64,000 bases of DNA from Escherichia coli (GCF_003790525.1 NZ_CP033635.1), one strand, 5' to 3'; shown: positions 41,801 through 47,800, numbered from the stretch's first letter. Program-made: the numbers.

Positions 41801-44800
41801 TTCCGTTTTCCCGGGCGATCTGCGCCACACAGGCTCCGGGCTGCAGTGACTGCTCCACTAAGGCGATTTTAAACTCATAAGGGAAGTTGGGCCGCCGGGG
41901 ACGTTTTTTTACCACGGGGGCTTCGGATATAACGGTGCTTTCAGGACGTACGACTGGTACCGTGGAAAATTGTCCGTAAAGGCAGGCATCAAGTTCCTGC
42001 TCCGACATGCCTGCGGGCAAAGGCCACGAAAGGCCAGCTCTCCGAAAGCGCACGAACATACTACAAACTGTTGATTTTGATACACCCAGGCGACGCCCGG
42101 CCACAACCCGGGGTAAATGTTCTTCAAAGTGAAGACGTAAAGCTTCAGTGATCCAGGTCCGGTGTTTCATACGATAGTGTCCATTAAAAATGATGGACAT
42201 TATTTTTGTAGAGCCGGAGGAAACAGACCAGACGGTTTAAATGAGCCGGTTACGATGAAAACACTGTCGCGTCACTCGGATACGGTAAAAGCGTTCGCCT
42301 ACCTGCTGAAACAGTGAGATAGCCTGAACGTGTACTGCAGTAATGGCTGGGTGGAAATCGACAACAACATCGCAGGGAACGCCTTACGGGGAGTGGACGT
42401 AGGCCGGAAAAACTGGTTGTTCGCGGGTTCCGACAGCGGTGGCGAACATGCGGCGGTGTTGTACTCGCTGATCGGCACATGCCGTCTGAACAATGTTGAA
42501 CCAGAAAAATGGCTGCGTTACGTCATTGAGCATATCCAGGACTGGCCGACAAACCGGGTACGCGATCTGTTGCCCTGGAAAGTTGATCTGAGCTCTCAGT
42601 AAATATCAATACGGTTCTGGCGAACCGCTTACTGTTCAATGGTCCATTGGGGTTTTGACATCAATTATCTCCGGTAAGTTAGTGAATGGATATCGGTAAT
42701 GCTAACTGACTAAAAATCCCTGTGAAGATGACTTCCCCGTAACGACATAAACAAAGCGAACACCCGGACGAAATACTATTTCACAAATTGTTAGGGCATC
42801 ATTTATGAGCAGCGTTTTAATCGAGTAGTCTTTACTTGCATTGCTGCCTTTATTCTCAGGTGTTCTCATGTCCAAGATGCTCTGTGAGTTCAGCGCTAAG
42901 CTCATCTTTAACAGTACACTTCGTAAGCATGTATAAAAACAGGTTAAGATCAGATTCGGTTTTAAGGCAATTTACCAGTTCGGCAGCAATAGCATTGGAT
43001 TCTTGTTTATCAATTGCCTGTCTCCACGGTGTAGGGAACATATCAAAAACAGGCAATTACAAAATTTAAATTACACTCTCGTCAGAACATAGCCCTTAAC
43101 GAACCGTCCATGCAGGGCTGAAATCCTCTTCCTGAAACAGCTCTGTCAGCCCGCTAATCTGTTTCAGCCTCAGCACTTCATCCTGGTCCATGCCCAACTC
43201 TGTGCCAATACGCTCATCTGTCCAGCCCAGACGTGAGAGGTCCCTGACAATGTCAGACATTGACGTTACCTGGTGTTTTCCCCTGGCACGGTTATGCCGT
43301 ATGGTTGCGGCAATACGTGATGCCTGTCCCTTTCTCTCTGGATTAATACAGGCCACTGGCAGCCAGCCCTTCAGACGTTTTCTCGTATCCGCTTTCCTGC
43401 CCAGCAACTGACGATGAAAACCATCCACGACCAGATAATGCTCCTTCTCTTCCGAAACCACCACAGGCTGCGTGAATCCATCCTGCTCCAGTGAATGTTT
43501 AAGCAGTTTTTTTTCACTGGAAGACATGACATTGGGATTGTAATCGTTGGCCACCACCTCATCCGCTTTCACCCACAACACACAATCCACAGGCTCCTGT
43601 GCAAAAGGGCTGACCTCATGCAACACCCTGCGCAGATGATTAAGGGCTCGTATGGTCTCTTCTTCAGATCGTTCCTGACTGAAGTACTGTCGAATCATGT
43701 TGCTCAATACTTCCACCTCAGGTGTCACAGAATCCCCCATTCCTTCCTCCTTTCTTTCATACGCTGCAGATAACGTTCATAGTGCCGGGGTTTGTTCGGA
43801 CTGAAGGAGAGGGTCCGACACCAGAAATCATTCTTTATGAGTGTCTTACAGATACGTCGCCAGGACGGGATATCCCGGCTCCCCAGGTCATTCTCCTGTT
43901 CATCCGGGATGTCATCCGGGAAGCCCCGCGTCTGATACCAGCGCAGGTAGACAGCAATTTTATTACGGTAATGTTCTGCCGTTCTTTCCGGCATCACATC
44001 CAGCAGGAACATCGCATAGCTACGCCAGGTATGATGAGGTGGCTTCGTGATACGCTTACGCAGGGCAAAATAGGCACCGCTCTCATTGGCATAAAGCGCC
44101 CCGCTGGCAGCACCCGACACCCGCTCACACATCCTGGCCCAGGTTTCCGGCTCCAGAACATGGTAAAGCCACAGTCCCTTACGCTGTTCCGGGCCAAAAG
44201 GCTCACAGACCCGCATGTTGCGTAACGGCACGCCGGCACGGTACATCAGGTCATACAGGGGATTGTAGATAGCCCGGGTTCTGGCGTTATATATCCATAT
44301 ATCACGGGCTTTCCAGTCATACAACGGATACAAGGTGTAATAAAACCCTTCAGGTGACGCTGTGGTCCAGGGTTTATCATCTGCATATCTCAGTTTGCGC
44401 TGAGACACCAGTCCCATAAAGCGATTGAGCGATTCATCAGCACGAACACCAGTCAGTATTGCCACTCCACACCGGTTACCGGCAAACCAGGAAGAAAATG
44501 CCGGAACAAATTCTTCAAACGTCATGGCATACCGATAAAATGGGAAATACGACATATCTGTAATAGCGTCATCTGGTGGCTGACGAACCCACTCCACACC
44601 TGGTTCCCAGCATATCCATTCCGGCTGAAACTGAGAGACACCGTTTACCGTAGTCAGGGGGAGTGCCACCCAGTAAAAGGTATCCGTCACATCCCGGTAC
44701 ATTTCCCGCATCTTCTGAACATGTTCAATGGTGCACTGATACTGAGCTTCCCAGTCAATGAATAATACAGAGAAACGACGTTTCTTCCTGCGAGCCACAT

Positions 44801-47800
44801 CAGCCGCAAGATGGAGCAGCACAGTGGAGTCTTTTCCTCCGGAAAAAGACAAACAGACAGAAGAGAATGTTTCAAACAACCATTCAATACGGCGAATAGA
44901 AGAATGAAATACATCATCCTCTTTTATTATCTTTCGTATAGTTCCTGACATGTTGTATATAACAAAAATTAAAGAACTAATTAATATTTTGATTTATAAT
45001 AAATAAACGCTTTGAACGACAATGAAACTCTTTTGACTTAAAATTAGTTTGTATTTTTCTTAAAAATCAAACCTGTGTCAACGCTGCCCCAATAGATACC
45101 ACCAATTAAAACCATAGAAAAAACCACTAATACTCTTATTTATTACGGTTATTTAATCTATTGATTAAGGCTGAATTTAATATAATTTATTGCTGTGTTT
45201 TTACAAACATTTAGCATGATTGAACAAGTCATCCCGTTTTTTTCATGAAATGATTGATAGAAAGCTGAACAGTACAGAATGATGTATCAGGGGACTCGTC
45301 ATTTTTCCCAGCCTCAGAGTCTGTCTGAACGCTTTTACCACATTTTCTGTCTGCAGGGCTGCCGCCATTCTGGTTGTGTTATCAGACGCAGTAGCCGTTC
45401 TATCCGTCTGGAGGTGCCGGTAGCTGCCTATGTGGCAAGATTGCGTTGCATTTCGCTAGCGCGTCATCAGCGCCATGTTTCCTTAATATCCATCGCTGAC
45501 CCTCCCGGGTTCACCTGTGTACGATCCGGAGACATGGTAGACAGGTGTTCGGGGACATGGTGAACACTTTTTAACATTCTTTGCCATGGTGATCGACTTA
45601 TTTTTCAGGTCGATCACCCCCACTTTTGTACTGTACCACCAGACTTCATACTGACCGTCTTCCTGCGTCTCCTTCAGCCCCAGGCGTTCATTTCTGAATG
45701 CCTTGCCCGCACTCAGACTGACACCTCTCAGACTCAGTTTACCCCTGATATCCACCTTCCTGACTACCACACCCTCGTCATACTCCGGCGGCTCTACATT
45801 GCTCCTGAACTGTCGCGCTGACGGCTGATACCGTGAGGCAGGAACAGCCATATCCAGAGCTTCATGCGGGCGTTCAAGATTATAGACTGTACGCCAGTGA
45901 TCGAAGGCGCGCTGCAACTCACCCGCATCTGTAAACCACTTACCCTGCAAAACTTCCGCCTTCAGACTGCGGTGAAAACGTTCCAGCTTGCCCTGCGTCT
46001 GTGGATGGTACGGGCTGGAGTGCCCCACCTTGATACCCTGACGCATCAGCCATAACTCCAGTGCCGTCCAGGTGCATCCTGTCCGGCAGTCCGTAGTGTT
46101 CAAATACGCTGACCAGCTGTTGCTGCACGGTCGTCCGTTGTTCATTGGCGCAGTGAGCCAGACACAGGGAAAAACGGGAATGATCATCCAGCAGCGTTAA
46201 CGGATGGCAGCGTCCACCGCCAAAGGGAAAGTGCCCCTTAAAATCCATCTGCCAGAGCTGGTTCGGCGTGTTCGAAGCGGCCCGTCGCCGGGGCTGCCGC
46301 AACCAGACCGGGCAGAAGGCCATTGCGGGCCATCAGGTTATGCACCGTGCTGAAGGCGGGCAGAACAAACTCAGAACGTAGTGACATGGTATCTCTCGCT
46401 TCCCTGGGCATAAGCGGCTCCATAAACGGGTTCTGATGCCTTAGTTGTAAGTATCAACCATGTCTCCGAACAAGTGTTTACTATGTCTCCGCATCGTACA
46501 CACCTGTCTGAGGGAGGAGACTGCCCGTCGCACTCTTTGTCTTGATTGCCGCAAATTGGCAGAGGTCGGCAACGCGAGTGTGATAAGCGTTAATGTCCCA
46601 GTGTTTTGCATACATGTCAGAACACCTTTGACTGTAAGCGCATACTGATCTTACCCACCAATAGTGGACACAGGACTAAGTGAGTAAACTCTTAACCAGG
46701 GTGACTCATGACAAAACCAGTATCAATCAGCAAGAAGCCCCGTAAACAACATACGCCTGAATTTCGTAACGAAGCCCTGAAACTCGCTGAACGCATCGGT
46801 GTGGCCGCCACAGCCCGTGAACTCAGCCTGTATGAATCTCAGCTTTATGCCTGGCGCAGTAAACAGCAGCAACAAATGAGTTCGTCAGAGCGCGAAAGCG
46901 AACTGGCCGCTGAAAATGTCCGCCTTAAACGACAACTGGCGGAGCAGGCTGAGGAACTGGCCATCCTCCAAAAGGCCGCGACATACTTCGCGAAGCGCCT
47001 GAAATGAAGTATGTCTTCATCGAAAATCATCGGGCAGAGTTCAGCATCAAAGCGATGTGTCGTGTACTTCGGGTTGCCCGCAGCGGCTGGTATGTCTGGC
47101 TCAGGCGTCGTCACCAGATGAGCCTGCGCCAACAGTTTCGGCTCACCTGCGATGCCGCTGTCCATAAGGCATTCTTTGAGGCAAAGCAGCGATACGGTGC
47201 TCCCCGCCTTGCTGACGAACTGCCGGAGTTCAATATTAAAACCATTGCCGCCAGCCTGCGTCGTCAGGGGCTGCGGGCGAAAGCCAGCCGGAAGTTCAGC
47301 CCGGCCAGCTACCGTGCACATGGCCTGCCCGTATTGGAGAATCTGCTGGAGCAGGACTTCAGCGCCAGCGGCCCGAACCAGAAGTGGGTGGGTGACATCA
47401 CGTACTGTGTGCCCGGAGTTCAGGGCGAGCATAGACGCTCAAATGAACCACGAGTCTGTCTGGAATATTGAACCGGTAACTCACGATGAGAAACCCAACA
47501 ATCCCACCGGGTGTGACGGTGGAGAACCTGAGCGGCAGTGACCTGCGGCATGCCCGCAGGGTGATGTAACCCGCTGACAACGGGGATTGAGGCGAGATCA
47601 CTAAGCCGAGATGATCCTCAAGGTTAAGTACTGAAAGGCTTAAGAATATGAACCCGTTAATCCGCCTCTGTGGGTTGAAAACGTCACCACGGCCTACGTG
47701 ATCTGACAGGCCGTGCAGGAGGAACTGGCAGTGATACGTAAGCACTGCCGGTCGAAGGTGTTTTGACATGTATGCGAAACTCCGGGGCAGCAGCGTCTAT

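Follow-up and report, generated by a model that had tools for sequence, protein, structure and literature searches.

The ibrA-ibrB (ibrAB) operon of Escherichia coli was reported in 2002 to enhance the expression of Eib (Sandt et al. 2002, as cited in PMC7649339), and the one phenotype on record is that both genes together activate prophage eib genes. Its K-12 paralog, ybdN-ybdM (ybdNM), is repressed by YbdO/CitR (PMC9068703), and YbdM has been termed 'completely uncharacterized' (PMC8764527). Among DNA-modification systems, DpdA is driven by a ParB-like ATPase, DpdB, and DndC has a ParB-family partner, DndB (PMC12839542). Here, we analyzed a 64,000-nucleotide stretch of an E. coli chromosome (GCF_003790525.1 NZ_CP033635.1), referred to in its whole length as the window, in which two genes on the minus strand had been recognized in a first-pass annotation as an IbrA/IbrB-like pair and a candidate DNA-targeting or defense module. 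As an object, this locus is the already named ibrAB operon. We would best explain the pair and its relatives as a module of mobile elements by which an ATP-dependent adenylating enzyme is brought to DNA, a reading that we advance tentatively and rate somewhat below an even chance.

Both genes are intact in the window. ibrA (43725-44951, minus strand) encodes 408 amino acids and ibrB (43096-43740, minus strand) encodes 214, and the list of open reading frames (ORFs) together with the sequence agrees with the first-pass annotation on the two intact overlapping genes, their lengths, and both quoted motifs. The overlap is 16 nucleotides: the ibrB ATG (43738-43740) lies inside ibrA, the TGA stop of which occupies 43725-43727, and an AGGAGG Shine-Dalgarno sequence (43746-43751), also inside ibrA, is separated from the ibrB ATG by a spacer of 5 nucleotides. 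As read from the sequence, this junction of Shine-Dalgarno sequence, ibrB start, and ibrA stop (43725-43751, minus strand) marks ibrA and ibrB as translationally coupled, just as had been proposed from the overlap. Both ORFs could be scored in 75 genome loci from many phyla, and there the two genes as a rule overlap or lie at most 15 nucleotides apart. Compared with the copies in Nissle 1917 and EDL933, ibrA and ibrB have nonsynonymous to synonymous substitution ratios (dN/dS) of 0.07-0.23 and no internal stops, indicative of purifying selection. Because of these ratios, and because the exact IbrA and exact IbrB sequences are both on record on at least 1000 public contigs, we regard the two as real genes rather than chance ORFs.

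IbrA consists of a PP-loop ATP pyrophosphatase domain (residues ~14-240) with the fold of phosphoadenosine phosphosulfate (PAPS) reductase, FAD synthase, and CysD, followed by a helical, family-specific DUF3440 domain (residues 240-408). A Pfam search detected both PAPS_reduct (E values of 1e-7 and 6e-7) and DUF3440 (8e-25 and 2e-6), which upholds the PP-loop, PAPS-reductase-like fold originally assigned to the protein. At the level of fold, the SGGxDS PP-loop and the adenine nucleotide alpha-hydrolase architecture place IbrA in the PAPS-reductase-like branch of the PP-loop ATP pyrophosphatases. The PP-loop itself, SFSGGKDS (44826-44849, minus strand; residues 35-42), opens the stretch SFSGGKDSTVLL (residues 35-46), and across 64 diverse homologs G39, K40, and S42 are invariant while S37, G38, and D41 are at least 90% conserved. 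No cysteine is invariant in the same set. The best-conserved cysteine column, 96, reaches 91% but holds alanine or serine in nearly all members of the Enterobacterales clade examined, the ybdN type included; this clade keeps Cys249 in place of Cys96. Cys249 occurs in 47% of the homologs, and one or both of the two residues are present in 62 of the 64, the remaining two having neither. DndC carries the cysteines of an iron-sulfur (Fe-S) cluster; since the IbrA family has no invariant cysteine, an Fe-S cluster of the DndC or TtuA type is excluded, and with it the candidate identity of IbrA as a DndC-like Fe-S enzyme. The cysteine pattern, as an alignment-level observation, may be compatible with a single-thiol step in IbrA chemistry.

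The same data bear on the 'auxiliary metabolic gene' label of phage copies, under which the pair would act in sulfur metabolism, with IbrA as a CysH- or CysD-like enzyme of PAPS or adenosine phosphosulfate (APS) and IbrB as a kinase of the ParB/Srx fold. We consider this highly improbable. The NCBIfam scores lie far under the curated cut-offs for CysH (PRK02090, 34.3 bits against 154), for PAPS_reductase (TIGR02057, 31.8 against 254.2), and for CysD (36.2 against 195), no cysteine is invariant, and the C-terminal catalytic ECGLH tail of CysH is replaced by DUF3440. In addition, the invariant partner of IbrA carries a helix-turn-helix (HTH), and the neighboring genes encode DNA enzymes rather than cys functions. 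The first-pass annotation had made its reading depend on IbrA being something other than an ordinary assimilatory CysH, and by the NCBIfam cut-offs it is indeed no ordinary CysH.

IbrB begins with a clade-specific helical extension (residues ~1-45), continues with a ParB/Srx nucleotide-binding domain (~50-155), and ends in a C-terminal HTH (~158-202); the protein matches phrog_2159 with an E value of 1e-87. The ParB N-domain fold and a conserved G-x-x-R box place it in the ParB/Srx superfamily, and this fold, together with the HMMER alignment to ParB and Noc, confirms the ParB-like assignment made at the outset. The motif VVDGFHRQ occupies residues 104-111 and contains DGFHR (43411-43425, minus strand; residues 106-110), which aligns in HMMER with the GERR box of ParB and Noc. 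The best-conserved stretch of the family is RHNRARGKH (43273-43299, minus strand; residues 148-156). Among 64 sequences from many phyla, D106, G107, and R110 are invariant, as are R148, H149, N150, R151, A152, R153, G154, and H156. A search by sequence found no solved structures of close relatives of IbrA or IbrB.

With its ParB-like fold and a label of 'ParB/RepB/Spo0J family partition protein' in some RefSeq records, IbrB might be taken for a plasmid or chromosome partition ParB, a reading with a negligible chance of being correct and effectively refuted by the following observations. IbrB does share with KorB, Noc, Spo0J, and VirB an N-terminal ParB nucleotide-binding fold followed by an HTH, but it differs from them in having DGFHR instead of the GERR box, in the RHNRARGKH motif, and in its lack of a dimerization domain, a ParA or KorA partner, and a parS site. 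No ParA-type gene adjoins it in any context examined, no parS-like palindrome or inverted repeat was found in or around the operon, and the modeled protein ends after the HTH and has no C-terminal dimerization domain. Against the Noc model of NCBIfam, IbrB scores 22.6 bits where the cut-off is 315, and the invariant neighbor is a PP-loop enzyme. A partition ParB with a nearby parS site, the other identity against which the pair was to be checked, is therefore not what IbrB is.

The identification of the locus as an ibrAB pair holds. RefSeq names the products 'phosphoadenosine phosphosulfate reductase' and 'IbrB-like domain-containing protein', a 90%-identical pair in the E. coli phage PhiR5_2 bears the annotation IbrA/IbrB, and the window locus has every feature of the IbrAB family that can be tested in silico. 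It resembles the IbrA/IbrB locus of strain ECOR-9 (Sandt, Hopper & Hill 2002, J Bacteriol 184:3640) in its overlapping two-gene architecture and domain content, and both loci lie in an IS-rich island (IS, insertion sequence) with virulence genes of the aerobactin, iha, and sit type; in this comparison of architecture, domain content, and setting, no difference was detected. The ibrAB segment is present at a coverage of at least 80% in 2027 of 5426 complete E. coli genomes (~37%), in as many as four copies per genome, some of them plasmid-borne, and its carriers include Nissle 1917, ST131, and O157:H7 EDL933. The segment and its flanks together are common to only 32 genomes. Strains SFE8, Nissle, and EDL933 each have different genes around ibrAB, with neither flank in common, so that what is conserved and mobile is precisely ibrA plus ibrB, in line with the stand-alone pair initially envisaged. 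As a two-gene operon complete in itself, ibrAB thus travels between the islands, plasmids, and prophages of E. coli.

The K-12 paralog ybdNM is by comparison a fixture of the core chromosome, located in the dsbG-ybdO-ybdN-ybdM-ybdL locus, and it represents a second enterobacterial clade situated between a LysR gene and ybdL (loci L016-L020 and L023, such as L020, 5913-8817). YbdN is ~59% identical to IbrA and YbdM ~56% identical to IbrB, gene order and overlap are equal, and the Ala96/Cys249 pattern occurs in both clades. The two differ in that ybdNM has a dedicated LysR repressor, YbdO/CitR, whereas ibrAB belongs to the accessory, mobile gene pool, lacks a linked regulator in the window, and is preceded by a different upstream region. 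As a separate observation, when ybdNM is derepressed in a published ybdO deletion, the cys regulon is at the same time induced by 2-2.8 log2 (PMC9068703 Table 1), which could be a coincidence or could hint at an enzyme that consumes a sulfur or adenylyl-sulfate metabolite.

Beyond E. coli, the IbrA family clusters at 50% identity into 1856 groups at E values of at most 1e-3 and into 323 at at most 1e-30. We inspected 80 genome loci spanning Enterobacterales, Verrucomicrobiota, Clostridia, Bacteroidota, Alphaproteobacteria, Helicobacter, Listeria, and a Heimdallarchaeote metagenome-assembled genome (MAG). An IbrB homolog accompanies IbrA in 76 of them. In 74 it follows directly downstream, encoded on the same strand; one locus (L029) has the opposite order, and another (L037) has IbrB next to an ibrA truncated by the end of the contig. 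Of the four loci that lack IbrB, three stop fewer than 320 nucleotides past ibrA, leaving a single true exception (L088). Long IbrA homologs include no IbrA-IbrB fusions; their additional length consists of N- or C-terminal extensions or of an intein-like insert. Besides IbrB, the only recurrent neighbor in these genome loci is a gene of ~420 codons directly upstream (18/80), which encodes a small SNF2-family helicase (phrog_62; Pfam SNF2-rel_dom and Helicase_C). The same helicase partner is found in phages phiAQ113, PY1, and FCL-2 and in Listeria monocytogenes, where lmo1311 stands beside lmo1310 and lmo1309. In this three-gene form the IbrA and IbrB cores are orthologous to those of the window and have identical invariant motifs, but the window copy lacks both the helicase and a small accessory protein of ~135 amino acids that is common in phage versions.

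Homologs of IbrA are carried by 224 deposited phage genomes and by 867 plasmids, among them virulence plasmids of Klebsiella and megaplasmids of Ralstonia. In Arthrobacter phage Shrooms the gene order is ParB-like, IbrA, IbrB, methyltransferase, TerS, and TerL; in Mycobacterium phage Philly, ParB-like, hypothetical, IbrA, IbrB, and terminase; in Faecalibacterium phage Taranis, ParB-like, IbrA, IbrB, two small ORFs, TerS, and TerL; and in Flavobacterium phage FCL-2, TerL, two hypotheticals, SNF2 helicase, IbrB, IbrA, hypothetical, and portal. A methyltransferase adjoins the pair in two of the phages examined. Among 80 viral loci from IMG/VR, IbrB accompanies IbrA in 73, in either order, and recurrent neighbors include helicases, exonucleases, a Cas4-like nuclease, a DnaB-like helicase, a Sak4-like annealase, and a Holliday-junction resolvase. 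Just upstream of IbrA, between 35 (by clustering) and 55 (by hidden Markov model, HMM) of these 80 loci encode the accessory protein, an unnamed family of ~130-145 amino acids that has the motif W..SCEHNLTN..NRxAWLGQ.ACC and matches nothing in Pfam, NCBIfam, or PHROG. Examples lie in loci L099-L176 (such as L102, 5619-6041, and L166, 5640-6065), and in one Cellvibrionaceae MAG the protein is fused to the C-terminus of IbrB (L029, 5787-6974). It is absent from the window.

This context raises the possibility that IbrAB is an accessory of phage replication, recombination, or packaging, a DNA loader or processing factor that would act at the transition from replication to packaging without leaving a lasting mark, the copies in E. 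coli islands then being domesticated morons. The fixed position of the pair upstream of TerS and TerL, or between TerL and the portal gene, in four unrelated phage groups (Arthrobacter, Mycobacterium, Faecalibacterium, and Flavobacterium) favors such a role, as do the replication and recombination genes that surround it in IMG/VR. The 631-amino-acid IbrA homolog P0380 has a long insertion after the conserved 'WDYN' motif that by eye looks intein-like, and this insertion also counts in its favor, inteins being typical of phage DNA-metabolism genes. We nevertheless regard a packaging accessory as unlikely, given that most genome loci, K-12 ybdNM, and the plasmid copies have no phage packaging context and that phages Shrooms and Taranis encode a separate TerS.

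Similar PAPS-reductase-like and ParB-like folds recur in the Dnd, Ssp, BREX type 4, and Dpd systems, and the window locus sits in a mobile-element hotspot; on these grounds IbrAB could be a minimal anti-phage or anti-plasmid defense system, as the first-pass annotation had suggested. In EDL933, moreover, a 722-amino-acid 'AAA domain-containing protein' encoded directly upstream of ibrA (L003, 11353-13521) matches the Mokosh MkoA and MkoC helicase models (E values of 5e-44 and 1e-40). Searches with PADLOC-DB v2.0 (2023) gave a different picture for the pair itself. No model matched IbrB at an E value of 0.01 or below, and YbdM matched none except one methyltransferase model, marginally. IbrA matched BrxP (E value of 2e-7) in the PP-loop region only, its residues 26-96 corresponding to profile positions 125-197 of 779, and DndC only partially and below threshold (9e-4 and 9e-3), and YbdN likewise gave only a partial BrxP match at the PP-loop and a marginal DndC match; no catalogued system in PADLOC-DB had models matching both components. 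These results led us to reject IbrAB as a known defense system. The pair contains no effector-like domain, such as a nuclease, TIR, toxin, or pore, the family is borne by lytic phages at fixed positions near replication and packaging genes, and core chromosomal copies exist (K-12 ybdNM and Listeria lmo1309-1311). A search of 7.7 million PMC papers and of bioRxiv on ibrAB, DUF3440, ybdN/ybdM, and the combination of PAPS reductase, ParB, and defense found no mechanistic or defense study. The evidence thus does not support the defense part of the annotation, and a defense function appears quite unlikely; its DNA-targeting part is plausible.

The parallel drawn there with Dnd and Ssp is likewise weak. 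DndC with DndB, SspD, and BrxP of BREX type 4 resemble IbrAB in having a PAPS-reductase-like PP-loop ATPase and, in the case of DndB, a ParB/Srx-fold protein in a DNA-modification setting. DUF3440, however, is specific to the IbrA family; no DndA, DndD, DndE, SspABC, PglZ, or BrxC is encoded near ibrAB, and IbrA is devoid of the Fe-S cysteine set. The missing cysteines, the partial DndC matches, and a recurrent neighborhood confined in the 80 genome loci to IbrB and the SNF2 helicase speak against membership in Dnd, while the partial BrxP match and a neighborhood without BREX genes speak against BREX type 4. In PADLOC-DB, IbrB matched neither the DndB nor the DpdB model. The 7-deazaguanine system DpdA/DpdB(/DpdE) offers a functional analogy, in that the ParB-like ATPase DpdB assists a DNA-modifying enzyme and SNF2 helicases belong to the cluster; the helicase that partners IbrAB has its best PADLOC score against the DpdE models (E value of 5e-18). 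It differs in that ibrAB has no tRNA-guanine transglycosylase homolog and that the catalytic subunit is a PP-loop enzyme. ibrAB therefore resembles Dnd and Dpd in general logic only, that of a modifying enzyme with a ParB-like partner.

In the mechanism that we propose for an adenylating enzyme targeted to DNA, IbrA and IbrB would form a complex in which IbrB binds DNA through its HTH, its nucleotide-binding domain serving as a nucleoside triphosphate (NTP)-dependent switch or loader in a manner likened to DpdB. IbrA would spend ATP to adenylate, and so activate, a nucleic-acid group (a base carbonyl or backbone phosphate) or a bound ligand, and the outcome would be DNA that bears a covalent mark or has been processed. 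The phage-borne pair would act on replicating DNA prior to packaging; in E. coli islands, where it stands alone, it would change the state of silenced, horizontally acquired DNA, and such an altered state would account for the reported activation of eib. The PP-loop and ParB/Srx-HTH folds with their conserved motifs, the coupling of the genes and their almost constant pairing, the purifying selection on both, their occurrence on mobile elements and in phages, and the DNA enzymes in the neighborhood are all consistent with this proposal. Several points weigh against it. Covalent DNA modification, ATPase activity, DNA binding, and an IbrA-IbrB complex have been demonstrated for no member of the family, an obvious conserved nucleophile or donor-binding partner is not apparent, and the E. 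coli copy has neither the helicase nor the methyltransferase nor the small accessory protein of the phage versions. The phage context is suggestive rather than specific, because late activators also sit upstream of terminase genes. Finally, the sole effect measured by experiment is on transcription, for which a pure regulator is an equally good explanation.

Such a regulator is the main rival: IbrAB would be purely a transcription co-activator or anti-silencer that leaves DNA chemically unchanged, with IbrB as a ParB-family DNA-binding regulator, akin to KorB or VirB, through which AT-rich foreign genes escape silencing of the H-NS type, and IbrA as its ATP-dependent loading or activating subunit. 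We take this seriously, although on balance we doubt it. It leaves unexplained why the partner should be a fully conserved catalytic PP-loop enzyme from Listeria to the viruses of Heimdallarchaeota, and why the pair is surrounded in lytic phages by genes for helicases, nucleases, and annealases and partnered by an SNF2 helicase or methyltransferase. IbrB also lacks the C-terminal dimerization domain of clamp-forming ParB regulators. Extended from the window to the family as a whole, the proposal of targeted adenylation would make IbrAB, with the optional SNF2 helicase and ~135-amino-acid protein, the core of an uncharacterized and very widespread system of nucleic-acid modification or processing, biochemically distinct from Dnd, Ssp, Dpd, and BREX, in which a ParB-like NTPase delivers a PP-loop adenylating enzyme to DNA, and which phages use on their own replicating DNA and E. 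coli carries as mobile ibrAB and core ybdNM. This wider claim is possible, though we would not yet call it probable.

The surroundings of the operon are those of a mobile island, as the first-pass annotation had said in placing it between IS debris behind an AT-rich upstream region. The window represents an E. coli chromosomal island with iha, amiC, sodC, sitABCD, and iutA/iuc and, one additional IS66 insertion excepted, is 99.95-100% identical to strain SFE8. That insertion, an intact IS66 (39555-42253; tnpC 39585-41156, tnpB 41176-41523, and tnpA 41523-42200, all on the minus strand), sits inside an older IS66 tnpC remnant, the 3' piece of which lies at 42330-42602 (plus strand). The left flank of ibrAB consists of this IS66 material, the tnpC remnant reaching 42602, and the right flank, from ~45218, of IS3, reverse-transcriptase, and integrase remnants. 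Upstream of ibrA, the AT-rich leader (44952-45270, minus strand) is the putative promoter region of the window copy and lies outside the conserved unit; the GC fraction is 0.253 over 44950-45249, compared with ~0.5 within ibrA and ibrB. A promoter-like TTGACA-17-AAAAAT occurs at 45081..45053 (minus strand), such sites being no more numerous in the region than expected from shuffling. No conserved promoter or operator was found upstream of ibrA, as the leader is not similar to the sequence that precedes the pair in Nissle, EDL933, or phage PhiR5_2. Its AT-rich composition suggests that H-NS-type repression silences the window copy of ibrAB itself, as has been reported for ybdO-ybdNM.

Just downstream of ibrB, a 66-amino-acid ORF (42856-43056, minus strand) overlaps what RefSeq records as a frameshifted hypothetical pseudogene (window 42798-43041); a PerC-like regulator occupies this position in EDL933, and the ORF was rejected as such a regulator for lack of meaningful similarity. 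Elsewhere in the window, Rfam matches at gathering level identify isrC (18738-18860, plus strand), isrN (30242-30384, minus strand), and STnc490 (54584-54705, minus strand), which are island-borne Hfq-binding small RNAs, and a group II intron catalytic domain (49590-49676, plus strand) located just 3' of an ltrA pseudogene annotated in the matching SFE8 record.

The window locus is in itself routine, and the interest lies in a very large, biochemically uncharacterized family and in its mislabeling. Public records give the two products inconsistent labels, 'phosphoadenosine phosphosulfate reductase', 'auxiliary metabolic gene', 'ParB/RepB/Spo0J family partition protein', and 'transcriptional regulator' among them. 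With scores that fall far short of the curated CysH, CysD, and Noc cut-offs, the annotations of the family are probably misleading, and the evidence presented here contradicts the labels of sulfur-metabolism 'PAPS reductase', phage auxiliary metabolic gene, and 'partition protein'. The family reaches from Enterobacterales to Listeria and the viruses of Asgard archaea, and takes in a silent core paralog in K-12, Klebsiella virulence plasmids, and lytic phages. If DNA-directed adenylation proves true, it would represent a new enzymatic route by which mobile elements mark or process DNA, and it would explain how an island-borne gene pair switches on silenced prophage genes.

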